From: a virus
Taxonomy: Duplodnaviria; Heunggongvirae; Uroviricota; Caudoviricetes
Direction: 5' to 3' (one strand)
IMG/VR virus record: IMGVR_UViG_3300028840_008153
Location: 99,143 to 163,142 of that record
Length of the DNA: 64,000 bases
The notes under the pieces were generated by a model. The model was not told where the DNA came from, searched no databases, and saw only the letters and a list, made by a program, of their open reading frames with translations. Below are positions 1 through 58,016 of this stretch, in pieces (within the stretch, counting starts at the first letter, position 1; each line of letters starts with the position of its first letter). The position numbers and the translations under genes are program-made.

Positions 1-829
1 CGTCCGGCCACTGCGGCTCCATGGGCTCAACCTTCTGGCGGATGGTGTGAAGGTCCTTGTAGCCGTGCCAGATGTCGTCCTCCTGCGTGTACTGCTCCAC
101 GTTGTCGAAGTCGTGTTCGTAGGGCTTTTCATCGAGGAATTCGTAGACTTTGGCCATCGTGGTCTTCGGCGCGACGGTGAGTTTCTCGTACTCCACGAAG
201 TGGATGCGGTTGCCAAAGCCCCTGCGCGTGGCGTCCCGAATCATGTTGAAGGCGGCGCCCAGCGGCTGGTCGGGCTGGCACCAGACCTCACAACGCCCGT
301 CCACGGTCTGGAAGCGCCCCGGATTCTGCATCTCGCCGGGGATGGGACGAATATCCTTGTTCTTGCGATAGAGTTTCTCGAAGCTGGACAGGATGTCGCG
401 CACGTCACGCACGGGTGCAAGGATCTTGATTCGGCGTCCCAGCAGCCTCTCAGCCATCTCGATCTGTGCCGGCCAGCCACGAGACTTGTCGAAGACCACT
501 GGAAAGCGGGAGTTGTGAAAATACCCATTGAGCAGCCCACGGAGCGCCGTCACCTTCACTTCCTCATCGTAGGCGGCTCGGAACTCGGACTGGTGCTCCC
601 ACTGGTTGCGCAGCATCGTCAGCATGCCAATGATGCCGCTGGTGGGCGTGACGTCGAAACGGTGGTTCTGCGCGAGGATGTTGACGAACAGCGTCGAGCC
701 CGCGCGCGGCAGCCCGGACACGAAGTGGATGATCTTGTCCTTGCCCGTCCACGATTCGGAACCCGGATGCCGGGCCTTCTTCGGCTTGCCCTTCTGCCGG
801 GGTTGCAACACGCCGCTGCTCTTGACCAT
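1..829 (-). CDS. Sulfotransferase-family protein (partial; gene continues past left window edge)
   Basis: Reverse-complement translation from ATG at 829..827 gives MVKSSGVLQPRQKGKPKKARHPGSESWTGKDKIIHFVSGLPRAGSTLFVNILAQ... with a PAPS-binding P-loop (GLPRAGST); AGGAG RBS 7 nt upstream. The plus-strand ORF 47..874 is its antisense shadow. Not in the ORF track because it runs off the window edge. Confidence 0.6.
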   Translation of the reverse strand, partial: MVKSSGVLQPRQKGKPKKARHPGSESWTGKDKIIHFVSGLPRAGSTLFVNILAQNHRFDVTPTSGIIGMLTMLRNQWEHQSEFRAAYDEEVKVTALRGLLNGYFHNSRFPVVFDKSRGWPAQIEMAERLLGRRIKILAPVRDVRDILSSFEKLYRKNKDIRPIPGEMQNPGRFQTVDGRCEVWCQPDQPLGAAFNMIRDATRRGFGNRIHFVEYEKLTVAPKTTMAKVYEFLDEKPYEHDFDNVEQYTQEDDIWHGYKDLHTIRQKVEPMEPQWPD

Positions 830-967
830 GAGATTGCTCCTGAGTTGCCGGGAGGATATCAGTACACCCGATAATGATAGAGCAAATCTATGAGAGCGTC
901 AATGCGCATTCACGAAGAAAAGCCCGCGCGGGGCGGGCTTCCTTGTGAAGTGAAACGGCGTTGAGAA

Positions 968-1240
968 TCAGGCGCTTGAGGACGACCCGACGCCCAGCTC
1001 TTCCTTGACGCGCGTCTCGACGTCCTCCATCGAGATCGTGCCGTTCAGATCGTCGTAGGCCGCGCCTTCGTAGATGGTGAGCGGCTGCGGCATCTCCCTC
1101 ACGAACGCCCTGATGAGTTTGCGCTGCGGCAGGCACACGACGCGTGTGACCGTGACGGAGCTGAGGTTTCGCACCTGCTGCTGGCGGACCACGATGTCCG
1201 CGCCGCCGGGAATATCGATTTGGCCATTGTTCGAAGCCAT
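968..1240 (-). CDS. Hypothetical protein (90 aa)
   Basis: ORF with AAGGAG RBS directly upstream of the ATG; lies between the tail-fibre gene and the sulfotransferase. Confidence 0.45.
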   Translation of the reverse strand: MASNNGQIDIPGGADIVVRQQQVRNLSSVTVTRVVCLPQRKLIRAFVREMPQPLTIYEGAAYDDLNGTISMEDVETRVKEELGVGSSSSA

Positions 1241-1256
1241 GGTTCTTCTCCTTACG

Positions 1257-4055
1257 TCAGTTAACGTCCTCCCCGACGCCCACCCACTGAGCCACTGCGC
1301 CCCAGTTGATGCTTGTGGCCGCCTCGCCCGTTACACGGACTTCGAGGTTGTTCCCGTTTTCACTGACTTCCAGCTGCCAGTTCTGCTCATCACCACCCGA
1401 AGACGAGGAGGAGCTTCCGCACGTCTCCATGGTGGGCACTTCGCACGCGCCCACGACCACGCTGTCCGAGCCGTCACGATAGGCCGTGATTTCCCGGGTG
1501 AATCCGCGCCGATGGACGCCCCCGTCCTCATTTCCAATGACCATCAGTCGCATGTGGACGGCCGAACCCGCCGTGATGGGAATGCTCATCAGCAGCGTCT
1601 CGGTCGCGTCGGTCGTCTTCGCGTTGCCCGTCATGCGGTGATAGCCGCGTTCGGCCGTGTACGTGCCGCCCGCGCCATCCTGGAAGGCCAGACTGTTGTG
1701 GGCCAGTTCGCCGTCCTTGGCCGCCGTGGTGCGCCGCCCCATGGCGATGGCCGCAAGGCCACTGGCCGTGTTGTTGTCGCCGCCGACCACCGTGCCATAC
1801 GCGCCACTGACCGTGTTGGACACGCCGCCCAGCACGGAGCCGCCCGCCGCCGTGATCGAGACGTTCTTGCCCAGCCCGGAGGCATTCGTGCCGGCCGTCG
1901 AGACGTAGCCGATGCGCGCCACGATCACCGCGTTGAGACCGTAGTTCTTGATCTGGCTGCCGAACGACTGCGAGTTGATGCCGTTGTCGATACGCACTCC
2001 GGTGCTGATAATCGCGCCCGTCGTGTCGTTGATCGTGCCCGTGCGGTTGACGATCGTTCCCATGGCCACTGAGCTGACGGCGTGCCCCGTGTTGGAGTAG
2101 GCCGTGTAACAGTAGTAGCCCACAGCAACGGAGTTGGTCGCGTTCGCCTGCGACCAGAGGCCGTCGGCAAAGTTGTAGTCGGACGTGTAGACGCCGCCCT
2201 GGCCCCGCCCCGCGTAGCACGCGAAGCCCGTGGCCACGTTGCGCGAGCTTCCGTTGTTGGTCTTGCAGTAGTAGCCCATGGCGACCCCCCACGTGTAGGA
2301 GTCGTTGTACATGCCCATGGCCACCGACTTCGTGTAGCCGTCACCCGTGTAATTGTAGTTGCCGATCGCACAGGAGTCGTTGGCGAAAGCGTCGTTCCCA
2401 CGACCGACGGCCGAGTTGTAGCCGCCTTTACATTCGTTCTGCCGCCCGAAGGCCACGCCGCTGTATTCGACCGTGTTGTAGGAGCCAACGGCCACGCCGT
2501 GTCGCGCCGTGGACCCGTAGGTCTTGATGTAGTTGCCCACACCAAACGCCGCGCTCCACGGGTTGTAAGACCTGTTCTTGAACCCAACAGCGATCATGCG
2601 GTCGCCGTTGTAATTGATCGTGTTCTCAGCGCCGAACGCCAGACAGTAGTCGCCACCGTAGATCTTGTTGCGGCGCCCGACAGCCACGCAACCCCAACTG
2701 GTCGGGCTCTCCAGGCCGTTGATGTAGTTGTCCACGCCTATCGCAGAGGAGTTCGTGCAATAGCCGTAGATTTTGTTGGAGATGCCGAAGGCGGCATTGC
2801 GACCCGAGTCGGAGTCTCCCCGCTTGGCCGTCACGTAGTTCCAGTTGCCAAAAGCGAGATTACGCTCACCGGTGCTGGTGGTGTTTACGTAACCGACGGA
2901 GCCACAATAGTTTTCGTAGGCGTAGCAGAAAGACCCGAAAGTGAATGCCCCGGTGTCGTACGCCTTGCCGTAACGGCCGACCGTGATTGATTTACCGCCT
3001 GTGGCGTTGTTTCCGTTGCCGGCGGCAAAATCGTACCCGGTCGCAGAATTGGCCGTGTTGCCGTAACCAAAGGCGCTTGAGTAGTTGCCTCCCGCCCCGC
3101 CAGCCTGGTTGTTGACGCCAAACGTGCTGGAGCCGCCGCCCTTGGAACGGTTGCCACGATTTGCAAAGCCGGGCCCGAAGCCCGTACCCACAGCCACCGA
3201 CGAATAACCTGAAGCCTCGCTCTGCCCGCCCATCGCCACGGCGTACGTGCCGGAGGCAACCTGGTCGGCGTACTGGATGCGCGCCTGGATATCCAACGCA
3301 TAGGTGCCGCGCGCATCGCCGGGAATCTGTGTCTCGGTCGGGAAGTCGTACCCGCCGGAAGAGGACGATGACGAGGAAGAGAGCGGCAGCGGTGACGCGG
3401 GTCGGGCCAGCAGTGCGTTCACGCCGGTGCGGCGAAGCAGCAGGTTGGTGGGATTGACGGCAAGCGGCTTGTTGGTGCCGTCAAGGATCGTGCCCTGCTC
3501 TGTCTGCTCGGTATCGGCCAGAACCACGGTGCCAAGCTGCGAAAGCGTGGCAGGCGTGTCCGACCCGCCGGGACCGGTCGCTCCGGTTGTGCCGGTAACG
3601 CCCGTAACGCCTGTGACCCCAGCGCCTCCTGCCGATCCTGTTACTCCGGTAACGCCTGTCACGCCCTGAGAGCCGGCTGGCCCTGTTGCTCCGGTGACGC
3701 CGTTGGGCCCTATGGGTCCATTGGCTCCGGTGACACCTGTTACACCAAGGGAGCCCGCTGAGCCTGTCGCCCCGGTGACACCCGTCACGCCAAGGGAACC
3801 AGCTGGCCCCGTCGCTCCGGTAACGCCGTCCGTGCCTGCTGGGCCTGTCGCGCCCGTCACGCCGTCTGTTCCGGCAGAGCCCGTAACACCAGTAACGCCC
3901 GTAGCTCCCGTGACGCCCGTAACACCCGTGACGCCAAGCCCTCCCGCCGTAACGTCGACCTTGCGCGCGGCGTCGCTATTGTCAACTGGCGCGGGCAGCC
4001 CCTTCAAACGGTTGCCCTGCATGTCGATCGGGTTGAACATCGGCGTGTCGGCCAT
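1257..4055 (-). CDS. Tail fibre-like protein with a collagen-like (G-X-Y) domain and YadA/Hep_Hag-like head repeats
   Basis: 932 aa. N-terminus [35 protein letters not shown] resembles phage tail-fibre N-termini. It has a roughly 120-residue run of [10 protein letters not shown]... collagen triplets and a poly-Ser linker. The C-terminal about 600 aa is full of recurring NxVAxG/SVAMG/AFG motifs like trimeric-autotransporter head repeats. Confidence 0.65.
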
Positions 4056-4068
4056 GGAAGTATCTCCG

Positions 4069-4347
4069 TCAATCCGGCGCTTCAGTACCGTCCGTTGCGA
4101 TGACCCTGATCGAATCCGTTGGCGGAGCCGGCGTCAGCGTCAACCGTATGCTCGTGCTGTTGGGCGTCTGCTTCTCCATCTGGAAGGCCACGACATCGTT
4201 CGAGGACTGAAGCAGATCCAGACACCGCACACAGACATCCTCGGTGGAGAAGCCCAGATCGAGATCGAAGACCGTGTTGATGCCGTCTCCGATAGTCTGA
4301 TCCACTTTCGCCATTGCTTCTCTCCCGATTTCGGAACTGATTCCCAA
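4069..4347 (-). CDS. Small tail-fibre-associated structural protein (92 aa)
   Basis: Shares a DG(I/T)xTVF(D/V)(L/I)DxGF N-terminal motif and a (I/T)(R/T)LTLTPAP C-terminal motif with the adjacent 4363..4827 gene; paralogous pair immediately upstream of the fibre gene. Confidence 0.5.
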
Positions 4348-4362
4348 ATGCCTCGCCGCGCG

Positions 4363-4827
4363 TTATGGCGGGAAGACAAACGCGGCAACCCGTCCTGTTG
4401 CGGGCGCCGGAGTCAGCGTCAACGTGATCTGCGTTGGGCCCGGAGAAGCCAAGTCCTTGTCGAAGAAGAAGATGGGCCCGCCGCCGAAGTTGTCGAACAG
4501 GTAAACCTGCGCGTTTTCCGTCGCAAAGCCCGCGTCGATCACGAACACCGTGCTGGTGCCGTCGCCGAGCGTGGTCGTGAAGTAGTCACCGCCTGACCCG
4601 CCGCCACCAAAGCCTGTGGTCGTGACCAGAATCCGGTTGGTGAGCAGATCGTGGATGTATTCGTCGTGAATCTCCTTCAGCGCCGCCAGGTAAAGCTCCG
4701 TCTCCAGCGCGCCGGGAACCACGATGCTCTCATTGGTGTTGACGATCATGCCGTTGGGCGGGATGTACGGAAGGCGCCTGGTCTCTACCAGGTTCTTGAC
4801 CCGCGTCAGCATTCGCTCGTTGGGCAT
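4363..4827 (-). CDS. Small tail-fibre-associated structural protein (154 aa), paralogue of 4069..4347
   Basis: Track ORF begins at TTG 4833; the ATG at 4827 has a perfect AGGAGG RBS 6 nt upstream. GGGGSGG linker; C-terminal ITLTLTPAPATG motif. Confidence 0.5.
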   Translation of the reverse strand: MPNERMLTRVKNLVETRRLPYIPPNGMIVNTNESIVVPGALETELYLAALKEIHDEYIHDLLTNRILVTTTGFGGGGSGGDYFTTTLGDGTSTVFVIDAGFATENAQVYLFDNFGGGPIFFFDKDLASPGPTQITLTLTPAPATGRVAAFVFPP

Positions 4828-4956
4828 CGTCAACCTCCTGTGAACATGAATCTAGCCGCCACGATGACGAATGCAATAGCTCCCAGCAGCAGAAGCAGCA
4901 TGCCGAGCGCCAGTAGGATGATCAGCGCCCCGTTCGTGTTGCCTTCCTTGTTCACC

Positions 4957-5904
4957 TCAGTCTTCCATGGGCAGCGGATACGTTTCCCCGTCCTCGGCTA
5001 TCTCCGCCGGCCCTGTTGGCCCGGGCTCGTGCGTAGGCCGGGGCGGAGCGTTGTCGGGCGCGCCGGCCTTGCCGGGTATCGGACTCAGGAAAGGCTCATC
5101 CGCCCTGCGGCCCTCGGCCTGCGGACGCTGAGTGTAGCCTAAGGAAGCCAATCTGTCACGCGTCAGCTTCACCACTTCCTTCAGCGGCTTCGACAGATTC
5201 CCCGGCGTCTTCAGCGTCTCCAGAAAGTAGTGGGTCAGGGCTCCGCACGGGCGCCCGTTCACGTACGTGTCCGCGCTTGTCTGGTTGCTTTTGCAGCCAC
5301 TTACGAACCCCACCTCTAATCGCCCACACACGACCGCCCGGGGAGCGGGAGCTATGGATCGACTCAGACATGTGCGCTTCCTCCACTCGATGTCCACGGG
5401 CGTCGGGTACATCCTGGGGATCATGTCAGGCGCGTTGGGTACGGGCATGGCTCGGGTCAGATCGCCTGAGTGGCAGGAGTCGTTGACCCACGAGAAGAAG
5501 CAGCCCTTCGGGATGCGGCCGAACATGCGCACGAAGTCCTTGTCCGTGAGCATGTGGTTGAGGTCCCACTGAAAGTCAACGGGACACACGGCTTCGAGCA
5601 TTCCGTCGATCTCGTGGGCGTAGTCACGTGTTGGATACTGCACGCCATGGCCGGAGAAGTGGAAGAACACGCGAGCGCCCTTCCTCACCTTGACCAGCCA
5701 GTCGATGCGCTCCTTGATGGCCTGCGTGGTAGCTCGTTCGTCCACGAGCAGACGGATGTTCTCGGGGCTGAACCCGAAGACCTCCACCAGGGCCTCAGCC
5801 ATGTCGGAGACGTCGTTGACGCAGCCGGCCAGCGGAGCACCGGGGTAGCGATTGATCCCTACGAGGAGGGCTTTTTCTTCTCGTCTGAGTCCTTTGTCGC
5901 ACAT
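4957..5904 (-). CDS. Caspase-like peptidase (C14 family; metacaspase/orthocaspase-like)
   Basis: ALLVGINRYPGAPLAGCVNDV...FFHFSGHG (catalytic His) ... WVNDSCHSG (catalytic Cys): canonical caspase His-Cys dyad context. Confidence 0.65.
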   Translation of the reverse strand: MCDKGLRREEKALLVGINRYPGAPLAGCVNDVSDMAEALVEVFGFSPENIRLLVDERATTQAIKERIDWLVKVRKGARVFFHFSGHGVQYPTRDYAHEIDGMLEAVCPVDFQWDLNHMLTDKDFVRMFGRIPKGCFFSWVNDSCHSGDLTRAMPVPNAPDMIPRMYPTPVDIEWRKRTCLSRSIAPAPRAVVCGRLEVGFVSGCKSNQTSADTYVNGRPCGALTHYFLETLKTPGNLSKPLKEVVKLTRDRLASLGYTQRPQAEGRRADEPFLSPIPGKAGAPDNAPPRPTHEPGPTGPAEIAEDGETYPLPMED

Positions 5905-8900
5905 GACAGTTTTCTCCGTAGTGCTCGTTTCCTAAGAATAGCACCTGACTTGGCCAACGGGTAGTCATGATGCAGCGAGATGAAAGCCGGGTTGCGGTAT
6001 GCGCCGCTGGGGAACTTCTCCATGGCGGAGATGCGTGCCAGGCGCCCCTTCCAGTCCTCAGCCTCGTCCATCATCTGCCTGCGGGTGGCGTCGTCGAAGC
6101 CACCGCCCACCTTGCCCACGATCGGGCCCGTTGGGCTGAGACTGTAGTCAAAGCCGCCAGCGGCACCCTCGTACTTGCCCTTACCTGGGAAGACGTTCTG
6201 AATCCAGACATCATGCTCGGGCCGTGGCTTGACCTTGATCGCGCGTCCGGGCCTGGCAGCGGGCCACGCCACGACGCCCTCGTAGGTTGCGGGGTGTTCG
6301 CCGGACACGATGCGCTCATAGAGGGCCTTCTGCTCTTCAGGCGTCCGTGCGGTCTCAGGCAGCCGGAACTGACGATCCGGCAGGTGCTTCATCAGCTCCT
6401 GCAGCTTCTGCATGCGCTCCTCGCCGGTCAGCGTGCCGGGCTCAATCGGCGTCTTGCCCCAGCGCACCACGTCGAAGAGCATGTTCCTCATCTGGACATT
6501 CTGTGCCTTCTGCTTCTCCAGCGAGTTGGATAGCGCTGCGTTGAGTATGCCGCCCAGCTCCTGTACCGGTACTGCCTTGCCTTCACGTTCCCCGTACACC
6601 TCGCCACGGACGATCGTCCCTTGTAACTCCTTGGGAATATCGACCTTCGCCCCGCCAGGACCGAAGATCTTGTAGGTATAAAGGATCGGCCGTCCCGTCT
6701 TGGAGATTCGGTAGGAGAGGGCTTCGATTCGATCACCCAAGAGATGATACAGCGCGCTGGCGCCATCCACTTTCTCCTGAATCATGTAGTTGGGGTCAAA
6801 CAGCTTCTCCACCTTGTCGGCGGGCACCACGCCATACTTCAGCTTCTTGATGCCCACCTCTTCAGGCTTTCCCTTGAGCAGCTTGGCCGCGCTCACCGGC
6901 GTGGTGTTGATCATCAGCCACGCGCCGCCCTGCTGCTTGCGCTGACGGGCGCCTGCCGCGCTCGGCGGCCCGGACATGCGCACCATCGTGTAGAACTCAG
7001 GGAAGCGTTTGTGCGTGACCACGAACTGGATCTTGTCGCGTTCGGCCTTGGTCACGATGACCGAGCCGTAATCATGCTTCTTGACCGTGCCCTTGCCGTA
7101 GCCTTCCTCGATGTTGCCCTCGAACTCAGCGTACTGCCCACGATGAAGCGGCTGCTGGTAGAGCATGATCTTCTTACCAGGCTCGGGCAGCTCCTTGCGT
7201 GTGGCCCACGAGTAGAGCGAAGGCTCTCCGCCTTCCCTGCCCAACCTGACGTCGTAGTGGGGGCCGGCCTTCTGCGCCAGATGACGCTGCACGACCCATT
7301 TGAGGACCTCGCCGTGAGGGATCTGCCTGGGATCGCCAAAGCGTTTGGGATCGGGCAGGCCCGGAGCATAGTCCGCTTCGCCCTTCTTCAGTAGCTTGTA
7401 ACCTCCATAACTGGCAACAGGAACGCCAACCGCAGCCAGTGCGGTGAGCAGCTTGTTGCGCCGTATGGCGCCCAAGAGCCCCTGCTGCTTCTTCCAGTGG
7501 CCGTGCAACAACCTCTCGGCAAGCTCGGTATTCTCGGGTGTTAGGCCGTGCCCCGCGCGTTCGGCGAACTCTCGCAGACTCGCCACGCTCTTGCGCGCAA
7601 ACTCTGGATCACCCTCGGGCACATCAAAAAGCGCCAAAAGCGGCGCTATTCGGCCGGCCACGTCTTTCTGGCTGGAAGGGATCTGCAGCCCAACCTGTTT
7701 CCCCTTGGAGAAAAGCTCTGTGCCAAGGGGCACGTCCGTCAGCTTGCTCTTCTTCCAGTTGGCAAGATCCATGTCGGCGACTGCCTCGCCATATATCTGA
7801 CCGCGCGGGTCATTTCCACGGAAGAACTCCTTACCCATCTGGTAGAAGTCAGGCTCGACGTTTGTGAGATGCTGCGCCTTGAAGTAAGGCAGAGCCGCTT
7901 TCTTCTCGATTGTTGGTAATCCTGTGATCTTCTCAGCCAATTCCCATAGGAAATCCTGAGACTTTGGTAATTCCGTGTCATCCCATAGCAGCTCTGCGGC
8001 CTTTCTTATCTCCAGACCACGATTGGCCTCTTCGCTCGACTCCTTGAGCACTTCGAGGAACTGCGTGATGAGCTGCTGTTTGGTCTCGGAGAGGTTGGAC
8101 ATGTACTGGTCGGCGCCCGTGTCCTTCTCCACCATGCCCCAGCGTTGCATTAAGCCCCGCTTGGGGTTGGAGAAGTAGCGTCTGACCTTCACAACACGCT
8201 CTTCTTCAGGCAGGTGAGCGTGGCTTCCGTGCCGGACCGCTCGCCCTGTCATCTGATCGAGCCTGGACTGGTTCCAGTGCGGCTCCATAAGCTGCATGAG
8301 CTTGGTGCCTTTGAGGTCCAAACCCTCCGAGCCGGCGCCTGATACCAGTAAGATCTTCACATTGCCGGAGTTGTAATCCTCCACGATCTCACGGCGCTCG
8401 CTGTCCTTCAATCCGCCCGTGAACACGTGATGTGGAACGCCCTTCTTCTCCAACGCCTCGGCCAGCGGTAAGATACCGGATTGCAGGTAGTTGGAGTACA
8501 CCACGGCCTTGAAGTTGGGATCGCTCTCCAGCCCCTTGTAAAGGTCGCCCAGCATGCGCCTTAGCTTGGGAGAGTGCGCAACCGCCGAGCCCTTCATCGT
8601 CTCGTCGAAGGGCATGGGATTGTTGGACAGCTGGCGCACGGCCGAGAGGAATGCGTTGAGCTGGGCGGACTCGGCTTTGCTGGGTGGCAGGTTCTTCTTC
8701 ACCTTGTAGGCCAGCCCGACGTCCTCATTGAGGAACGCCTCATACATCGCCGTCTGCTCAGGCGTCATCTCGACTTCGATGTCTTCCTCTTCGACACGTG
8801 GGAAGTCGCCTTCGAGCGGATGGTAGTCAACACGGCCCTTGACGAGCCGTTTCAGCTCCTGCTGGTTCCTAAGGCGCTCCACCATTCCGGGCTTAACGCC

Positions 8901-9497
8901 GTGCCAAGTCTTCTGCCACCACGTGGGCCTTACCTCTACATTCTCCACGAACTTGTCACGGAAGGATTTATGAGATCCAGGCGGGTTTCGCCCCTGTGCC
9001 AGCACCTTGAGCATGGGCACGAACTCACTGGGATCGTTGCGCACGGGCGTGCCGGTGAGGAACATGACCTTGCCGTGGGCCTTTGTCGGGAGCTTGCTGA
9101 CTTTCGTGCCTGGCCGACCCATCCGATGTGCCTCATCGAAGACGGTTAGACCGGCCTGTGGCAAACCTTTGCTCACAGCCTTGTTATAAGACCGCACATC
9201 GTAGTCTGGTGCGCCCTCTGGCTGGTCGGTGAACTTCGACAGCTCCTTGCGGTAGTTCTCACGAAGCGCAGCAGGCACCACAACTGCTTTGGGGCCCTCG
9301 GTTTGCTCGCCTGCGGCGATGCTGGAGAGCGTCTTGCCCGATCCCAAGGCGTGATAGGCCAGAAGTGCAGGCTGTTGCTCCATCTTGGCAACAACACGCT
9401 CCTGCTGAGGCTGCATTTCCACCTCAGGCTTCAATGCGGCCTTCTTGGCTCTCTGCTTGGCGATCTTGATCAGGCCCATTTCGGAACCCATTCCCAA
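5859..9497 (-). CDS. SNF2-family helicase fused to a LigD-like 3'-phosphoesterase plus ATP-dependent ligase (nucleotidyltransferase) domain
   Basis: 1212 aa. N-terminus: GSGKT (motif I), DEAHR (II), LTGTPVRND (III), QMTGRAVRHGSH (VI). Middle: HYDVRLGREGGEPSLYSWATRKELP (LigD phosphoesterase HYDLR...SWAVPKG signature). C-terminus: KVDG (ligase motif I), YEGVVAW (IV), AIKVKPRP (V). Confidence 0.7.
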   Translation of the reverse strand: MGMGSEMGLIKIAKQRAKKAALKPEVEMQPQQERVVAKMEQQPALLAYHALGSGKTLSSIAAGEQTEGPKAVVVPAALRENYRKELSKFTDQPEGAPDYDVRSYNKAVSKGLPQAGLTVFDEAHRMGRPGTKVSKLPTKAHGKVMFLTGTPVRNDPSEFVPMLKVLAQGRNPPGSHKSFRDKFVENVEVRPTWWQKTWHGVKPGMVERLRNQQELKRLVKGRVDYHPLEGDFPRVEEEDIEVEMTPEQTAMYEAFLNEDVGLAYKVKKNLPPSKAESAQLNAFLSAVRQLSNNPMPFDETMKGSAVAHSPKLRRMLGDLYKGLESDPNFKAVVYSNYLQSGILPLAEALEKKGVPHHVFTGGLKDSERREIVEDYNSGNVKILLVSGAGSEGLDLKGTKLMQLMEPHWNQSRLDQMTGRAVRHGSHAHLPEEERVVKVRRYFSNPKRGLMQRWGMVEKDTGADQYMSNLSETKQQLITQFLEVLKESSEEANRGLEIRKAAELLWDDTELPKSQDFLWELAEKITGLPTIEKKAALPYFKAQHLTNVEPDFYQMGKEFFRGNDPRGQIYGEAVADMDLANWKKSKLTDVPLGTELFSKGKQVGLQIPSSQKDVAGRIAPLLALFDVPEGDPEFARKSVASLREFAERAGHGLTPENTELAERLLHGHWKKQQGLLGAIRRNKLLTALAAVGVPVASYGGYKLLKKGEADYAPGLPDPKRFGDPRQIPHGEVLKWVVQRHLAQKAGPHYDVRLGREGGEPSLYSWATRKELPEPGKKIMLYQQPLHRGQYAEFEGNIEEGYGKGTVKKHDYGSVIVTKAERDKIQFVVTHKRFPEFYTMVRMSGPPSAAGARQRKQQGGAWLMINTTPVSAAKLLKGKPEEVGIKKLKYGVVPADKVEKLFDPNYMIQEKVDGASALYHLLGDRIEALSYRISKTGRPILYTYKIFGPGGAKVDIPKELQGTIVRGEVYGEREGKAVPVQELGGILNAALSNSLEKQKAQNVQMRNMLFDVVRWGKTPIEPGTLTGEERMQKLQELMKHLPDRQFRLPETARTPEEQKALYERIVSGEHPATYEGVVAWPAARPGRAIKVKPRPEHDVWIQNVFPGKGKYEGAAGGFDYSLSPTGPIVGKVGGGFDDATRRQMMDEAEDWKGRLARISAMEKFPSGAYRNPAFISLHHDYPLAKSGAILRKRALRRKLSCATKDSDEKKKPSS

Positions 9498-24031: not shown

Positions 24032-24924
24032 GTCGTCGTCTCCATCATGGCACGACGGCTGGCCTTGCGGCGTTCGCACAACACGCAGATCTTGCCCTTC
24101 GGCCACTGCTCGAAGAATGAGACCCGCTTGCACATCGGACACTCCACCTTGGCATAGGCCAGTGGGTGCGTCGCCAGTATGCAGCCGTTGTCGCCTCCGC
24201 TCTCGTAACCCCTGCTGCAATCGTTGCAGGGAAAATCATAGTTTGCCGGGCACTTCTTGCGTGGGCCGGCCTCTGGCACCTTGCGGTCATTCCTCAGCGT
24301 CCGGTTGTGCCGGATGATGCTGGACGCCGGATGTATCTCCTCCAGCCGGGCGCCTTTGGGGCTGAATTGAACCTCGCCCACCAGACACGCCTGCACCAGT
24401 TCACCGGGATACACCTTCTTGTAACGTGGCCAGCCTATTTCCTTTGCAAGAACGCCCGTGGCGTACTTGTAAGGCACCTGCTGACTGAAGGATAGCCCGG
24501 CAAAGCTGCCGCTCAAGATACGAAAGAACAGTAGCAGACTGGACTTACCGCTTCGCAGGGGCCGGCCGTTGCAACACTGCTCGATCTGCAGGCCCACCCA
24601 CTCCTTGGCGTCGCATTTGACGGTGTTCATGGGCTGCGATCCCGAGCGGAAATTCTCGTAATTCGCTGCCACACGCCAGTTTATGCTTCTCATGCGCATG
24701 CGATCGATCCAAGCGTTGCAGTGCATCGCCACAGCCAGCGACACTATCGTCCCGTGTTGCTTCTTCAACTTCAGGGCGTAGATGGCCGCCTGCACGTATT
24801 CGTTCATCATCTGCGGTGTGAAGCGCTCGTCGGACAGGAGCACCTGGTTGGCGCCCTCGCTGACGAGGATGTACCTCCGCAGCACGGGATTGACCGAAAA
24901 CTTGAACTGCTTAGGTGGCGGCAT
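24028..24924 (-). CDS. Hypothetical protein (298 aa) with a Cys-rich C-terminus; weak rolling-circle-Rep-like motifs
   Basis: VAMHCNAW and VPYKYATGV resemble HUH/Y motifs only loosely. The C-terminus has several CxxC pairs. Confidence 0.45.
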   Translation of the reverse strand: MPPPKQFKFSVNPVLRRYILVSEGANQVLLSDERFTPQMMNEYVQAAIYALKLKKQHGTIVSLAVAMHCNAWIDRMRMRSINWRVAANYENFRSGSQPMNTVKCDAKEWVGLQIEQCCNGRPLRSGKSSLLLFFRILSGSFAGLSFSQQVPYKYATGVLAKEIGWPRYKKVYPGELVQACLVGEVQFSPKGARLEEIHPASSIIRHNRTLRNDRKVPEAGPRKKCPANYDFPCNDCSRGYESGGDNGCILATHPLAYAKVECPMCKRVSFFEQWPKGKICVLCERRKASRRAMMETTT

Positions 24925-25867
24925 TCGCCTTACTTCTCCTGTGCATTTGAATTATGCGATCGTGGAAGTCTTGAACAGTAGGCTTCCACGACGTATCTAT
25001 CTGAGGCAGAACAGTGAACTCCCCTCGTGCGGCCTCAAGCACAGCTTCTTCAAGCTCGTTGAGTCGCACCAGATGAGGAACGTAGATGTTCGGCAGCGAG
25101 GGGAGCGCATTGTGCACCATGGTGATCGGATGACAACCGTAGGCCAGAGCCTTAAGGATCTCCGTGGGGACCACGCCACCACGAAGGTCCGTGATGCGGG
25201 GGGCCGGCAGGAAGTATTTCAGCATGCTCCACTGTTGCGCGCCGTCCCCGGAGTAGGAAATGGCATAGTCTCTAACCCTTCCCGGCAGTCGATCCTTGTC
25301 CACACGATCGTGGTAGTAGACGGCCAGCTTGTCGTCCAGACCCGCACCTTTCAGCACCTTGGCGGCGTGGTCGACCAACGCGAAGTCACGGTCCAGTAGG
25401 TTGTTCAGCACTAACCCGATGTCCCGGCCGCGCTCCTCAGCCAACGGAAGCGTGGGCACGGGCCGCCAGCAGAAGCGCGACGGGATCATCGAGGTCATGT
25501 TCTTCAGGAAGGTCTGGCAGTTCGACACGAACGCGTCGATGCCAAGCTCCGGCAACGACAGCGTGTTCGAGTAGAGCGAGTAGACATCGTCAAACGTGAA
25601 GGAGGCGACAAGCACCCACGGTCTGCCGCCGATGCGAAGGCGGTGCGAGATGTAGGCATCCAGCGACTCCAGCACGACGACGATATCCGGCTGGTACTTC
25701 TCGGGGTCCAACTCGTCCAGCTGCTTCTGGGAGTCGCTGTCCACGAGCGTGGCCGTGGTCTGATCAACCTGCGTGGCCGGGAAGCAGGCCAGCAGTTCCT
25801 CGGCCAGCGTGTCTCCTACCCGCTCGCTTGAATACAGGATCAAAGTTTCCATACGGCCCATCCCCAT
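24911..25867 (-). CDS. Glycosyltransferase (GT-B, group-1-like)
   Basis: C-terminal GGVVPTEILKALAYGCHPI resembles the GT4 E..G...lEAmAcG.PvI motif. Confidence 0.45.
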   Translation of the reverse strand: MGMGRMETLILYSSERVGDTLAEELLACFPATQVDQTTATLVDSDSQKQLDELDPEKYQPDIVVVLESLDAYISHRLRIGGRPWVLVASFTFDDVYSLYSNTLSLPELGIDAFVSNCQTFLKNMTSMIPSRFCWRPVPTLPLAEERGRDIGLVLNNLLDRDFALVDHAAKVLKGAGLDDKLAVYYHDRVDKDRLPGRVRDYAISYSGDGAQQWSMLKYFLPAPRITDLRGGVVPTEILKALAYGCHPITMVHNALPSLPNIYVPHLVRLNELEEAVLEAARGEFTVLPQIDTSWKPTVQDFHDRIIQMHRRSKANAAT

Positions 25868-34488: not shown

Positions 34489-34591
34489 CGTAGCCTCTCT
34501 CCCATAGCTAACGAAAAACGAAGCACTGCCCGGCACCGAAGTGCCGGGCAGCGCGCCCAAGTTCACAAGTAAGGACGCCGCCTTCTGGCAA

Positions 34592-35210
34592 GGCCCACCC
34601 GCAAGCGCGTGGAGGCACCGTCCGTATCCGATCGATCTCAGAATCGATCACCGGCTCACCCGCAAGCGCGTGGAGGGGCCCTCGGGATCGCTGCGATGCA
34701 GCGGCCCACCCGCAAGCGCGTAGAGGTACCTACTCGGCCATGGCTGACGCGAATTCCTCTGAGGGCCCACCCGCAAGCGCGTGGAGGTACCTTGAGGGGG
34801 GGGCTGTCCTCACGGCCATCACGTACGACCCACCCGCAAGCGCGTGGAGGTACCCTGGTGCTGAAGTGGGTCGGAACTCCCACCCGCAAGCGCGTGGAGG
34901 TACCCTGGTGCTGAAGTGGGTCGGAACTCGGGACACGGGCCCACCCGCAAGCGCGTGGAGGTACCGGGCTATATTTTTTTTCAGACGGTGAAGTAGCACG
35001 GCCCACCCGCAAGCGCGTGGAGGTACCCAGATGTCTCCCCACTCGTAAGTGTGAGGCTCCGGCCCACCCGCAAGCGCGTGGAGGTACCGCTCTCAGTCCA
35101 GATCAGCCCACTATTCTTGGGGGCCCACCCGCAAGCGCGTGGAGGTACCACTTCTGTGGCGCCGGTTTTGGCTTTTGGGATGGGCCCACCCGCAAGCGCG
35201 TGGAGGTACC
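34592..35210. CRISPR. CRISPR-like array 1: 11 repeats of 28 nt (GGCCCACCCGCAAGCGCGTGGAGGTACC), spacers mostly 33 nt
   Basis: Repeat starts read directly at 34592, 34653, 34703, 34764, 34826, 34876, 34937, 35000, 35061, 35122 and 35183. The two leftmost repeats are degenerate, so the trailer is at the low-coordinate end. The repeat can fold as CCAC-CCGC-AAGC-GCG-TGG. Spacers are unique except spacer 5, a 22-nt prefix copy of spacer 6. Confidence 0.8.
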
Positions 35211-35320
35211 TCTATGACAAAATGACATGGTTTGGGTGGTCAGCTCATGGAGCTTGGTGATTACTGGAGCAGTCCCTCCAGCCTGGCGCTCACCCCGGGC
35301 GCGAAGCCATGCCATTGGTA
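35211..35320. other. Leader-like flank shared by both arrays (copy 1)
   Basis: About 85 nt, GGTCAGCTCATGGAGCTTGGTGATTACTGGAGCAGTCCCTCCAGCCTGGCGCTCACCCCGGGCGC, is nearly identical at 38463..38540. It contains the hairpin CTGGAG-cagtcc-CTCCAG. Confidence 0.5.
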
Positions 35321-35321
35321 A

Positions 35322-36044
35322 TCAACTGAACTTCTTGATGATCTTCGCCAGCTCTTTCACGCTGGTGCGAACCACCTGACGCATGTTGTGTCCTACACAC
35401 TCCGCCAGAAGATACCTTGCATCGTTCGGGTCCTCCAGGACGTTGATGATGCGAAGATACTTCGGCTGCCGCGTCTTGGGACGCCGCTCATGGGGAGGGA
35501 TCTCTCCCCGTTCGGGACGGTCATAGTCGAAGATCACCTTGGCCTCTTCGGCTGTGACCTTGCTGAAGTTCTTCTCGACGGCCGTGTTCTTCTTGATCAC
35601 GACTGTCGTGGCGTCGGCATTGATGCGCTTCTGCGTTTCTTCGGGCAGCCTCAGGAAAAGATCCGTGGTCACCCATTCCTTCTCGAACGCGACCTTGCTC
35701 ATCACGCCCGCGCCGTACGCGTGGATCTTGGTGAAAAGGCCGTACGAAATGCCAGAACCAGCAACCACTTCGTTGTAGAACTCCTCCACCTGGTGGTCGG
35801 CGAGCTGGCCGATCTTCTTCTTGTGTTTCAGAAGCACCTTGCGCATGCCGGCTTTGTAGGCGACCTTGAGCTTCTCGATCTCCTTGCCGACAGCCTCGCA
35901 CAGCTTCTCAAACTCAGCCTCAGGAAGACCGGAGCCCCCCAGTCCCGGAGGAATTCGTCGAGGGGGCTTGCATGCTGGACTAATCCGTGCCATCCGTTGC
36001 CTCCTTTTTCCTTTTTCCGTAGCTGCTGACAGAGTCCACGACAT
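35322..36044 (-). CDS. Uncharacterised protein (240 aa, or 223 aa from the alternative start at 35993) encoded between the two arrays
   Basis: The alternative start MARISPACKPP (ATG 35993) has an AAGGAGG RBS at 7 nt spacing and overlaps the 575-aa gene's stop by 14 nt. No recognisable family; a Gly-rich segment VVAGSGISYGLFTKIHAYGAG. Confidence 0.5.
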   Translation of the reverse strand: MSWTLSAATEKGKRRQRMARISPACKPPRRIPPGLGGSGLPEAEFEKLCEAVGKEIEKLKVAYKAGMRKVLLKHKKKIGQLADHQVEEFYNEVVAGSGISYGLFTKIHAYGAGVMSKVAFEKEWVTTDLFLRLPEETQKRINADATTVVIKKNTAVEKNFSKVTAEEAKVIFDYDRPERGEIPPHERRPKTRQPKYLRIINVLEDPNDARYLLAECVGHNMRQVVRTSVKELAKIIKKFS

Positions 36045-37707
36045 CCGTGGAAATCTCCTTCATCAGATCCTGCAGCTTGACCAAACGCTGCTCTTCCCCT
36101 TCGGCAACCTCCTTCCGTTTGAGCTTGATCTGGGCCTCCTCTTCTTCCTCCGACAGGTTTCGGGCCTTGATTTCATCGACGGCGTCGGCCGTCTTTTTCT
36201 TCTTTTCCTCCTTCCACGTGCAGGGCCCGCTGTACGCGATGTAGAATTTCCGGCAGCGCTGGTGCAAGGCTTCATCAAAGAAGGCCCACTGGAAAGGCTC
36301 GATGCCTTCCAGTCGCTCCTCAGGCGTGTTTGGCCCGGGAAGCGCGAACAGGCTGAGGTTGCCGCAGGCCCAAGGCTTCAGCCTTCTTACGATGTTCCGC
36401 GCCAAAATCCTGATTTCCTGCTCCACCACCTTCGCCCTGCGGACGGATAGGTCCTGCAACTGCGCTCGCCATTTGGTTGCTGCCCGGCTGCGTCCATCGA
36501 CGGACTGTATGAGGTCCTTCAGCTTGTTCTTTCTCTGCCGAAGGTCCTTCAACCGGCGAACCGTGTTGTTCAGCGGAATGTGGTACATGCGCCACTTGTC
36601 CGCCTTTTCCTTGGCGCGCGTCTTCTTCTCGACAGCGACGTGCACGAGGAAGTCCAGCCCCTCATACTTGTTCTCGCCGGGAACCTCCTTGATGTACACG
36701 TACGCGCTGCGCTTGTGCTTCTGGGCCTGCCGTTGAACGGGGGGCCGAACGTAGGACACGTCCAAGAAGAGCCGGTCTTTTCGATCCAGCCGCAAGCAGG
36801 CGCACTGGTACTCCCAAGCAAGTTGCTCGACGACCTTGACCTTGCCGGTCTTCTTGTTCTTCTGCAGCTTCGGAGCCGGCTGCGGCATGAAGTGGTTGAA
36901 CACGCTGGCGGAGACGTCATCCAGCTTTTTCACCTCCGTCTTCGTCTTCCCGTTCTGCCCCATTTCAAACGGTCCTTTTGTGAGCAACCGAATGGGCGTG
37001 TCCGTGTGTGGCTCGATATTGAGTGAGAACCCCCACTTCTCCAGAATGCCGTCTTCATCGTCCTCCTCACGCTCCTTGAAGGGAACGAACTCCCGCCGGG
37101 TCTCATAACCCATGATCTTCAGCGTCGAGTGCTCCATCAAAGGAAGCGCCCTTTCCATGGAGACATGAAGAATGTCCCTGGAAATGCCCCTGCGCGGGTC
37201 CTTCGTCGTGAGCGCCGCCTTCACGTCTGAGCGCATGCAGTCCCAAACGGAAGCCTTGAAGCGGAAGGGATGATGCTTGTCGTGAGCGAATTCCTCCATC
37301 ATGGCCGCCCACTCGCCGTGAAGGCCGTAGTAGGTCACGTTGGGGTTGAAGTCCGTCCCCCGCGTCACGAGCGCCAGGAACTGCTCGATCCGCTCCCTGT
37401 CAAGCTCCGCGCGAATGTCACCGTCCTTCGTGAAGTGAAGTCTGCCCCCTAAACGAAGGCAGGCACCCCCGATGTCCACGAGCCGCTGGAGCATGAAACG
37501 GTAAGCCTGCAACATCCTGATGACCCGTTGTCTCTCCTCGAAGGTCTCGCAAACGACCCTGAAGGAGTGGCAGCACTGAAGCCAATCTTCCTGGCCGGGT
37601 TTGTTCAACGCGCCCGGCTTCCGGCCGTCGCCTCGAACCCCGCGCTTCCCTTTTTTCTTGGTCTTCTTCTTGGTTTTCTCTGCGGCCTTTTTCAGTAGCA
37701 CGGCCAT
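35980..37707 (-). CDS. Uncharacterised 575-aa basic protein between the arrays; candidate nucleic-acid-binding effector
   Basis: Real ATG at 37707 (MAVLLKKAAEKTKKKTKKKGKRG...) with AAAGGAGG RBS; the track ORF starts at GTG 37734. Lys-rich N-terminus, scattered Cys clusters (QCAC, WACGN, CRK...GPC), and a C-terminal TADAVDEIKARNL that weakly resembles a RuvC-III (DADxNAAxNI) motif. Confidence 0.6.
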   Translation of the reverse strand: MAVLLKKAAEKTKKKTKKKGKRGVRGDGRKPGALNKPGQEDWLQCCHSFRVVCETFEERQRVIRMLQAYRFMLQRLVDIGGACLRLGGRLHFTKDGDIRAELDRERIEQFLALVTRGTDFNPNVTYYGLHGEWAAMMEEFAHDKHHPFRFKASVWDCMRSDVKAALTTKDPRRGISRDILHVSMERALPLMEHSTLKIMGYETRREFVPFKEREEDDEDGILEKWGFSLNIEPHTDTPIRLLTKGPFEMGQNGKTKTEVKKLDDVSASVFNHFMPQPAPKLQKNKKTGKVKVVEQLAWEYQCACLRLDRKDRLFLDVSYVRPPVQRQAQKHKRSAYVYIKEVPGENKYEGLDFLVHVAVEKKTRAKEKADKWRMYHIPLNNTVRRLKDLRQRKNKLKDLIQSVDGRSRAATKWRAQLQDLSVRRAKVVEQEIRILARNIVRRLKPWACGNLSLFALPGPNTPEERLEGIEPFQWAFFDEALHQRCRKFYIAYSGPCTWKEEKKKKTADAVDEIKARNLSEEEEEAQIKLKRKEVAEGEEQRLVKLQDLMKEISTDVVDSVSSYGKRKKEATDGTD

Positions 37708-37818
37708 GTGGCCTCCTTTCAAAGCGCCTCCCACGGGAGGCTCAGGTCATGGACCCTGACGATTGCCGGAGCTTCCGGCATAACGCTCGCCCTAAGCGCA
37801 AACACGAATGACGAGATC

Positions 37819-38462
37819 GGCCCATCCCCACACGTATGGGGCAGCCTCAAAATCAAAGCGGTAAACTGCCGTCCCCATCGGCCCACCCCCAACTGAAAAA
37901 GGAGAACGGAACGGGTCCATCCCTACGCGTATGGGGCAGCCGCCAGCAACATCCTGCGCCACAGCCCTTGACTCGGCCCATCCCTACGCGTATGAGGCAG
38001 CCGCATGGAAATGCGTGGGCAAGTTGACGGATGAGGGCCCATCCCCACTGACACCATCTCAGACGCGCTGCGGCCCATCCCCATGCGCGTGGGGCAGTCG
38101 CGCAACTGCCGAACTGCTGAATCTACGTAGCGGGCCCATCCCGCGTGTATGGGGAAGCCTGGGACCGCGCTGAAGACCCGGCTACCGGGCGGGCCCATCC
38201 CCACGCGTACGGGGCAGCCCCCCCCTCGGGCAGTATCCGTGCTCCTCGGTCCACGGCCCATCCCCGCGCGTATGGGGCAGCCAACGAGGTACTGCTGGGG
38301 CAGGTGCAGGCCCTGGGCCCATCTCCACGCGTATAGGGCAGCGGCACAGACAATGGGAGGATAGCCATGAAAGAGGGCCCATCCCCACGCGTATGGGCAG
38401 CCCGGACATACTCGCAGACCGCAGGATGCACGCCGGGCCCATAAGCCAATATGACACAGGTG
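37819..38462. CRISPR. CRISPR-like array 2: about 10 degenerate repeats of 28 nt (GGCCCATCCCCACGCGTATGGGGCAGCC), spacers 32-36 nt
   Basis: Repeat starts at 37819, 37914, 37975, 38072, 38133, 38192, 38255, 38316 and 38375. Heavily mutated units sit at 37880 and 38036, with a truncated remnant at 38435. Repeat hairpin is CCCCA-cgcgta-TGGGG. It shares the 5' GGCCCAYCC with the array-1 repeat. The array looks decaying, with 1-3 mismatches per repeat. Confidence 0.7.
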
Positions 38463-38540
38463 GGGATGGTCAGCTCATGGAGCTTGGTGATTACTGGAGC
38501 AGTCCCTCCAGCCTGGCGCTCACCCCGGGCGCAAAACCGT
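38463..38540. other. Leader-like flank shared by both arrays (copy 2)
   Basis: Near-identical to 35228..35315. Confidence 0.5.
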
Positions 38541-38607
38541 GTCATAGAAATTGGCTGTACTTTATTTTAACGCAAACGCGCGGAGAAATTAGGGGGCGCC
38601 GGTAGGG

Positions 38608-57939: not shown

Positions 57940-58016
57940 TGGTAGCGGGGGCAGGACTTGAACCTGCGACCTCCGGGTTATGAGCCCGACGAGCTGCCTA
58001 ACTGCTCCACCCCGCA
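57940..58016 (-). tRNA. tRNA-Met (anticodon CAT), initiator-type
   Basis: Minus-strand sequence TGCGGGGTGGAGCAGTTAGGCAGCTCGTCGGGCTCATAACCCGGAGGTCGCAGGTTCAAGTCCTGCCCCCGCTACCA. It has three G-C pairs at the base of the anticodon stem, an A11:U24 pair and an unpaired 1:72 position (U·U), with CCA encoded. About 85% identical to E. coli tRNA-fMet. Confidence 0.85.

Follow-up and report, generated by a model that had tools for sequence, protein, structure and literature searches.

The 64,000-nucleotide (nt) stretch analyzed here, positions 99,143 to 163,142 of IMG/VR virus record IMGVR_UViG_3300028840_008153 (the window, with position 1 at its first letter), carries two CRISPR arrays that enclose two genes, designated gene A and gene B. 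We are concerned with array 2, the degenerate one of the pair. In our reading, to which we assign a probability of roughly 0.55, array 2 belongs, as one of its two guide arrays, to a phage-borne, type V-like unit that consists of a nuclease-dead effector with the Cas12f/TnpB fold, the product of gene A, and of gene B. Along the minus strand, the order is scaffold 2, array 2, gene A, gene B, scaffold 1, array 1, and terminator (Table 1). All genes around the arrays lie on the minus strand; since, in addition, a conserved block lies upstream of the arrays, degeneration is found at the far end of array 1 and of the arrays of relatives, and a strong terminator follows array 1, we consider the arrays to be read on this strand. 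Therefore, the GGCCCA described in a first-pass annotation of this DNA as a shared 5′ end is indeed common to both repeats, but it represents their 3′, spacer-proximal end (..TGGGCC).

Table 1. Position of the features of the unit in the window.
Feature	Position	Strand	Description
Putative scaffold RNA, copy 2	38450-38546	minus	Predicted 10-bp closing stem, three hairpins, and single-stranded stretch
Putative anti-repeat of copy 2	38460-38469	minus	CCATCCCCAC, perfect complement of array-2 repeat positions 17-26 (GTGGGGATGG)
Array 2	37819-38442	minus	9 near-full 28-nt repeats and 3 truncated units
Truncated unit of array 2	38436-38442	minus	GGCCCAT remnant
Truncated unit of array 2	38036-38048	minus	GGCCCATCCCCAC, repeat 3′ end only
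Truncated unit of array 2	37880-37891	minus	GGCCCACCCCCA, repeat 3′ end only
Gene A	35980-37707	minus	575 amino acids (aa); C-terminally truncated Cas12f/TnpB-fold protein, predicted to be nuclease-dead
Gene B	35322-35993	minus	223 aa; conserved gene A partner with no recognizable family
Putative scaffold RNA, copy 1	35221-35316	minus	Same three predicted hairpins; compensatory changes in closing stem
Putative anti-repeat of copy 1	35234-35239	minus	CCACCC, pairs with GGGTGG of array-1 repeat
Array 1	34592-35210	minus	11 repeats, six perfect
Intrinsic-terminator-like hairpin	34523-34554	minus	14-bp stem and T-run; closes unit after array 1

The consensus repeat of array 2, R2, reads GGCTGCCCCATACGCGTGGGGATGGGCC on the minus strand, or GGCCCATCCCCACGCGTATGGGGCAGCC as plus-strand letters. 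Six copies of GGCCCATCCCCACGCGTATGGGGCAGCC with at most 3 mismatches were found, at 37819, 37914, 37975, 38192, 38255, and 38316, against none elsewhere in the window and none expected in shuffles, and three divergent or indel-bearing copies were found at 38072, 38132, and 38376. A position-by-position scan detected no perfect repeat. The degeneracy reported by the first-pass annotation is thus borne out by nine near-full and three truncated units; the changes per near-full copy range from 1 to 7, and two copies carry indels. A repeat-finding run on the window returned nine copies of a 28-33-nt unit at 37817-38406. Eight of the nine near-full repeats follow a 60-63 nt period, which is interrupted by two gaps of 95 and 97 nt; the spacers are unique and 32-35 nt long, apart from two of 22-23 nt. 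Array 2 therefore has the direct repeats of 23-50 nt and the unique spacers of similar length that are expected of a CRISPR array, and a cas gene adjoins it, namely the Cas12f/TnpB-fold gene between the arrays, a link that is conserved in 10 further loci. The array had been drawn to 38462; array 2 proper stops at 38442, and 38447-38462 form part of a conserved RNA element. The GGCCCAT remnant exists as described, although one base to the right of the earlier position of 38435.

Each of the two long gaps contains one truncated unit, and at both places (37880 and 38036), in agreement with the earlier description, only GGCCCA(C/T)CCCCA(C) is present in plus-strand letters. Around these internal units, a full repeat is followed by 22-23 nt, then by a repeat tail of 12-13 nt, and then by a spacer of 33 nt. 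The truncated units retain repeat positions 16/17-28, and the 12-mer of the repeat tail occurs 7 times in the window, versus 0.03 expected. What the deletions took was the distal part of a spacer together with the 5′ portion of the repeat after it; they spared those 22-23 nt of one guide that adjoin the repeat, as well as the complete pairing tail of the next. On the Cas12f model, the spared parts would be those that a mature guide needs. Given that the truncated units retain the repeat 3′ end, and that two of the three, with a full spacer after each, contain the whole segment that would pair with the anti-repeat, the evidence suggests that the erosion of array 2 has been filtered by function.

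The leader-proximal repeat of array 2 is cut down to GGCT-T-ATGGGCC, with its hairpin deleted, and the normal integration site is therefore gone. In array 1, whose repeat R1 reads GGTACCTCCACGCGCTTGCGGGTGGGCC on the minus strand (GGCCCACCCGCAAGCGCGTGGAGGTACC as plus-strand letters), the first repeat is intact, the six perfect repeats are the leader-proximal ones, and variants concentrate at the low-coordinate (far) end. The loss of the integration site from array 2 and its preservation in array 1 would explain why the former drifts and the latter is homogeneous, and the suggestion that array 2 is an older array that is no longer renewed fits these data. The same locus was found in five other contigs from at least four samples; across them, array 2 differs by a single spacer single-nucleotide polymorphism (38292), and no sign of ongoing spacer acquisition was seen among the window and these five near-identical contigs, whose genomes are 99.8-100% identical overall.

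In a rival reading, array 2 would be a non-functional, neutrally decaying pseudo-array left behind by a duplication of scaffold and array, with array 1 alone in use. The mutation of all nine near-full repeats, the first repeat without a hairpin, the changes within the anti-repeat-pairing segment of about half of the units, and the cleanness of array 1 are all in line with such a relic. However, the deletions left the repeat 3′ tail and full downstream spacers in place, copy 2 of the scaffold is intact, with an anti-repeat match that is the better of the two (10 versus 6 bp), and a degenerate array paired with a clean one recurs in the related locus L052 (loci and contigs used for comparison are given here as L and a number), again with a unit that has only the repeat 3′ half. 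The near-identity of array 2 in the five other contigs also argues against decay, although weakly in view of the identity of their genomes. We therefore consider a dead relic unlikely.

Three further observations were made on array 2 and its repeat. Two short GC-rich hairpins (GCCGGAAGCTCCGGC and CCTCCCGTGGGAGG) lie at 37708-37818 on the minus strand, between the distal end of the array and the ribosome-binding site of gene A, where they could act in attenuation or mark a processing site. The repeat tail has one more exact copy outside the arrays, at 25855-25866 on the minus strand (TGGGGATGGGCC); this copy overlaps the ATG of the minus-strand open reading frame (ORF) 24911-25867 and lies just downstream of an AT-rich stretch that resembles a promoter. 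It could have arisen by chance, be a lone repeat tail, or act as a regulatory site. In the distal-most spacer (37847-37879), the first 13 nt match 42931-42919 exactly, with E=0.05 for that spacer, which is probably chance given 23 queries.

The effector was assigned to its fold by way of a small family. As single sequences, neither gene A nor gene B gave a usable match in Pfam, PADLOC, PHROGs, or PDB sequences. When 1.84 billion cluster representatives were scanned exhaustively for gene A with HMMER, only 11 relatives were recovered, all distant (23-29% identity), and two word-indexed homologue searches returned almost nothing beyond the query, probably owing to its lysine-rich termini; the family alignments have no conserved stretch of 7-10 columns. 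The 12-sequence profile matched Cas12f1/TnpB chains in PDB, with 9i8y_A as the best match (E=3.6e-11) and 8hr5, 8j1j, 7wju, 8dzj, 9nzq, and 9n9c ("nuclease-deactivated Cas12f") as further matches, and four family members showed weak matches to Pfam Cas12f1-like_TNB. An AlphaFold2 (AF2) model built with the 12-sequence alignment reached a predicted local distance difference test (pLDDT) score of 77, compared with 40 for the single-sequence model, which was unusable. When the former was searched against PDB with Foldseek, the top 50 matches were all Cas12f, dCas12f, TnpB, or other Cas12 proteins (E ~2e-10, prob 1.0), with 9n9c as the second-best. Gene A thus has the WED/REC/RuvC fold of Cas12f and TnpB that is expected of a type V effector.

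The catalytic residues are missing from this fold. The RuvC-II glutamate ("IQIENL" in Cas12f) is aligned to "kvYGLP" in the gene A family, the RuvC-I "GVDLG" is replaced, and all 12 family members have other residues at the D and E sites of RuvC. Furthermore, every member stops shortly past a "YKA..GI" motif, before the Zn-ribbon and RuvC-III, so neither an intact RuvC D-E-D triad nor a Zn-ribbon (TNB) domain is present. Since the catalytic site is missing in all members, the gene A product should bind nucleic acid without cutting it, and would be dCas12-like rather than a nuclease.

Gene B is a conserved companion of gene A. A gene B-homologous ORF of 213-267 aa lies downstream of the gene A homologue in all eight loci whose contig spans that gene (E=2e-16 for L048), and L050 and a P0004 contig likewise show a gene B homologue where they are truncated; the contigs of L051 and L049 stop too early to show the gene downstream of gene A. 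Gene B and seven homologues had no credible match in Pfam, NCBIfam, PHROG, or PDB sequences. We considered gene B as the supplier of the missing RuvC-III and rejected this possibility, as the family does not conserve the "NADAT" motif of gene B.

The first-pass annotation had described a leader shared by the two arrays, and the array-flanking blocks (~35218-35315 and ~38447-38545) are indeed 92% identical over 87 nt and ~90% identical over 98-99 nt, but they look like a structured scaffold resembling a trans-activating CRISPR RNA (tracrRNA) rather than a mere leader. Both window copies are predicted to form a 10-bp closing stem (38537-38546 with 38450-38459 in copy 2), three hairpins that are identical between the copies, and a 12-nt single-stranded stretch. 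The differences between the copies fall almost entirely in the closing stem, where two pairs are changed on both sides, and in the single-stranded stretch. The same architecture was also predicted in L050, L052, L053, L054, and L055, and in the loci with two copies (the window, L052, L053, and L059) compensatory changes between copies support the predicted pairs, although the L059 copies fold less clearly into the shared shape. The elements of L054 and L055 are much more stably folded than shuffles (z = -5.1 and z = -6.9, respectively). No Rfam family was matched by either window copy.

By its sequence, the single-stranded stretch could pair with the 3′ half of the cognate repeat, over 10 bp in the case of array 2, and an A-to-G difference between the scaffold copies matches a T-to-C difference between the repeats. 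The cognate duplex of array 2 (-21.7 kcal/mol) ranked 1 of 10. In relatives, anti-repeat:repeat complementarity extends over 10 bp in L050 (1/500 shuffles), 9 bp in L048, and 13 bp including G-U pairs in L059. In L055, the element (7373-7500) is flanked by the homologues of gene A and gene B, with the array downstream of gene B, and contains a 13-nt perfect complement of the repeat of its own locus; since it does not adjoin the array, it cannot serve as an integration leader only. RNAduplex applied to whole 170-nt leaders was uninformative because of huge internal loops, and ungapped-helix and short-segment tests were used instead. In a swap test, the cognate sum was -182 kcal/mol, versus -143 +/- 10 kcal/mol for permuted pairings, and the cognate value was reached in 7 of 20000 permutations. 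An anti-repeat complementary to the cognate repeat, as expected of a tracrRNA near its array, is therefore present, save in L052, L053b, and L054.

Arrays of 28-29-nt repeats in the orientation of the genes, mostly with a 61-nt period, were found in every DNA-retrieved locus save L049, a 1.75-kb gene-only contig. L053 has two arrays with different repeats, each behind a homologous ~170-nt element; L059 has two arrays with the same repeat; and L052 has a degenerate, irregularly spaced array, in which one unit has the repeat 3′ half only, beside a clean array. Since two-array loci recur in relatives, with the degenerate and clean combination in L052, this pairing is a family trait and not an accident of the window genome. 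The contigs of several relatives are phage-like or very large (28 kb, 233 kb, and 548 kb). In L054, a type I-E Cas1 is encoded at 99-1025, immediately upstream of the gene A homologue (TIGR03638, 375 bits versus a cutoff of 216). This locus is on the 233-kb contig and has an array fragment at the contig end (1-75).

The recurrence of the two-array layout in the distant relatives L052, L053, and L059 bears on one of the two models offered by the first-pass annotation, in which two co-resident systems with different repeats are served by one tolerant Cas6-like nuclease. As that annotation stated, the array-2 repeat differs from the array-1 repeat and yet shares an end with it: R1 and R2 are related, having ~18/28 positions in common, among them the terminal GGCCCA, and a hairpin can form in each. 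However, no Cas6 and no second effector were detectable in the window, gene B has no Cas6-like or other family match, and a single effector gene lies between the arrays, each of which has a scaffold copy of its own, with an anti-repeat that differs in step with the repeat. We regard two systems sharing a nuclease as very improbable.

The array-2 repeat clearly belongs to the type I-E class, and we take the window repeats (28 nt, with 33-nt spacers and a hairpin followed by a 7-nt tail) to be of type I-E descent. In a metagenome scan, R2 was found to be 22/28 identical to the repeat GGCTCCCCCACGTACGTGGGGATGGACC of L060, a complete type I-E locus (1-8820) with Cas3, Cse2, Cas7, Cas5, Cas6e, Cas1e, Cas2, and an array; its Cse1 position is occupied by a 622-aa ORF with no Pfam match. 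R2 and the L060 repeat have the same 6-bp stem, 4-nt loop, and 7-nt tail, and array 2 conforms to the type I-E pattern of 28-29-nt repeats with a central hairpin and a 7-8-nt 3′ tail, separated by 32-33-nt spacers. When the type I-E proteins of L060 were compared with the window by tblastn, no Cas6 or other type I gene was detectable; thus, linked Cascade, Cas6e, Cas3, and Cas1e-Cas2 genes were not found within the 64 kb. Among 185,579 GTDB species genomes, no array with either window repeat was found, and the 42 matches were all single and consistent with chance. Scans of IMG/VR for the window repeats found no array, and the first repeat pattern used on metagenomes gave no match. Because the repeats are of type I-E class, no type I gene is detectable in the window, and a Cas1e accompanies the family in L054, the data suggest that the gene A family borrowed type I-E arrays and adaptation.

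The same resemblance could mean that both phage-carried arrays are processed by a host Cas6e and loaded into a host Cascade-Cas3 against competitors, with genes A and B otherwise employed. Viral mini-arrays that exploit host systems are documented (PMC11656645), and the identity and shared hairpin geometry with the L060 repeat, the 61-nt period, which fits type I-E, and the lack of detectable type I cas genes in the window would all be expected. Against this stand the co-occurrence of the arrays with genes A and B in 10 divergent loci, the repeats that vary by locus and match locus-specific anti-repeats, the many array-2 repeats with a broken or missing hairpin, which would be poor Cas6e substrates, and the lack of an array with either repeat among the species genomes. 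Such hijacking of a host system is, in our estimate, improbable. Likewise, the possibility raised in the first-pass annotation that array 2 was simply captured from a host did not hold, even though its repeat is of a host-type class; array 2 is best read as a frozen, eroding guide array of the gene A-gene B system rather than a captured host array.

Several observations weigh against the proposed guide-array function. For the spacers, whose targets the first-pass annotation had wished to see checked, neither the 64-kb window nor GenBank phages yielded a match. The mutations of array 2 also strike the anti-repeat-pairing segment in about half of the units; therefore, part of the array may be dead, and the number of units already lost may be large. 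The anti-repeat of array 1 comprises 6 bp only. The folding energy of the window scaffold is unexceptional for its composition (z = -0.76), and the case for the window therefore rests on covariation and homology of architecture. In the swap test, L052, L053b, and L054 showed no cognate-specific pairing at the anti-repeat site, and the single-stranded segments used in that test were set by hand, for L048 and L059 partly with complementarity in view. Finally, Cas12r, the phage analogue nearest to this unit in the literature, functions with no tracrRNA (bioRxiv 10.64898/2026.04.20.719267).

Considering both sides, we infer that the guide-array unit may operate as follows. The unit would be transcribed on the minus strand, and the ~97-nt element upstream of each array would serve as a tracrRNA-like scaffold, whose single-stranded anti-repeat would pair with the repeat 3′ half beside the spacer to yield a scaffold:CRISPR RNA (crRNA) pair with the guide on the 3′ side. 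For lack of a RuvC site, the gene A protein loaded with this pair would bind its target DNA and leave it uncut, and either transcriptional silencing or the recruitment of gene B by the complex would follow. The arrays would probably be filled by type I-E Cas1-Cas2, host-encoded here and phage-encoded in L054. Array 2, having lost the hairpin of its leader-proximal repeat, would no longer acquire spacers, and its repeats would drift.

The nearest counterpart among phages is the Cas12r-CRISPR system of Thermus Lalka phages, in which a 564-aa TnpB-like effector is followed by short arrays of degenerate 29-bp repeats and 31-33-nt spacers that resemble the I-E repeats of the host. That system has no adaptation genes, and its authors propose the use of host I-E Cas1-Cas2; its RuvC is active, as D238A abolishes interference, and it uses crRNA only (bioRxiv 10.64898/2026.04.20.719267). 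Compared by description, the window unit is similar in being phage-encoded, with a small TnpB-like effector (575 versus 564 aa) and degenerate I-E-like arrays, whereas gene A lacks the catalytic residues and the C-terminal domain, and gene B and a structured anti-repeat RNA are present here. When P0001 and P0003 were searched against GenBank phages by tblastn, only weak TnpB matches were returned.

The nuclease-dead Cas12f of the dCas12f-σE system is found in Bacteroidota, has ~350 aa and a σE/helix-turn-helix (HTH) partner, and no tracrRNA has been found for it (Hoffmann et al., Nature 2026, PMC13472631; 9n9c, 9n9m). Gene A resembles it in its Cas12f-like fold, in a C-terminal truncation that removes part of the RuvC site, and in predicted RNA-guided binding without cleavage (PMC13472631). 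In contrast, the unit described here is phage-borne, its effector has 575 aa, its arrays are I-E-like, and its partner bears no sigma or HTH signature; an operonic extracytoplasmic function (ECF) sigma partner is lacking, as the gene B family had no sigma-factor match.

Type V-F Cas12f with its tracrRNA and TnpB with its omega RNA are the best fold matches and have the same arrangement of a scaffold, a repeat:anti-repeat duplex, and a 3′-side guide. Unlike gene A, these proteins are active and have a Zn-ribbon, and the anti-repeat here would lie inside the closing stem and not at the RNA 3′ end. A half repeat beside a scaffold recalls the tracrRNA-to-omega RNA route put forward in PMC10691335. 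The arrays themselves are similar to those of type I-E in their 28-29-nt repeats, 32-33-nt spacers, hairpin and 7-nt tail, and in the Cas1e of L054, but they are degenerate and have no Cascade, Cas6e, or Cas3 genes alongside. Cas12m and TldR are interference-defective RuvC-fold proteins that are found on plasmids or phages and act by DNA binding (PMC11656645, PMC10705468); they belong to other families, with other RNAs and no gene B partner, and silencing in the present case is conjectured from the sequence. Collectively, the best-supported reading is that of a rare phage-borne RNA-guided DNA-binding system, kin to dCas12f, Cas12r, and binders of the Cas12m/TldR type.

We further put forward, as a tentative extension, that the unit may represent an undescribed phage-restricted CRISPR subtype, with a dead Cas12f-like protein, an obligate gene B, a four-way-junction tracrRNA whose anti-repeat co-evolves with each array, and arrays and adaptation borrowed from type I-E. 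In that case, array 2 would have been domesticated into a fixed guide set that no longer adapts, its repeats cut back to the minimal tail for pairing with the tracrRNA, and would serve in binding, silencing, or otherwise acting on host or competitor genes.

The remainder of the window is phage DNA, with genes for tail fibre, portal protein, and helicase-ligase, and its source contig is ~198 kb long. A minus-strand ORF of 1212 aa (5859-9497) joins an N-terminal DNA helicase (phrog_62) to a C-terminal ATP-dependent DNA ligase (phrog_114), and a single tRNA gene on the minus strand (57943-58016) is the sole Rfam gathering-level match in the window. No sigma-70-type promoter was detected. Two small ORFs that flank the unit were considered as paralogues marking a duplication and were rejected, since they have no mutual similarity. 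Array 1 contains a perfect 50-nt tandem duplication (34829-34928) of most of a repeat and 22 nt of spacer, which is not found in the otherwise identical sister contig L001 and is either a polymorphism or an assembly effect. The contigs L002-L005 all break in or beside the arrays or the scaffold element; L002 stops within array 1, and the inverted-repeat chimera of spacer and repeat at its end (7940-8028) looks like an assembly artefact.

If our reading is correct, the unit would be the second, independent case after Cas12r in which phages have joined a miniature TnpB-derived protein with I-E-style arrays and, unlike the first, would be nuclease-dead and equipped with a conserved partner, gene B, and a tracrRNA-like scaffold. 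Array 2 would be a natural example of a CRISPR array eroding to fixed guides, with half repeats beside a scaffold as in the proposed route of omega RNA re-emergence. The gene A protein would be a compact (575 aa) programmable DNA binder, and gene B would be a new effector partner.

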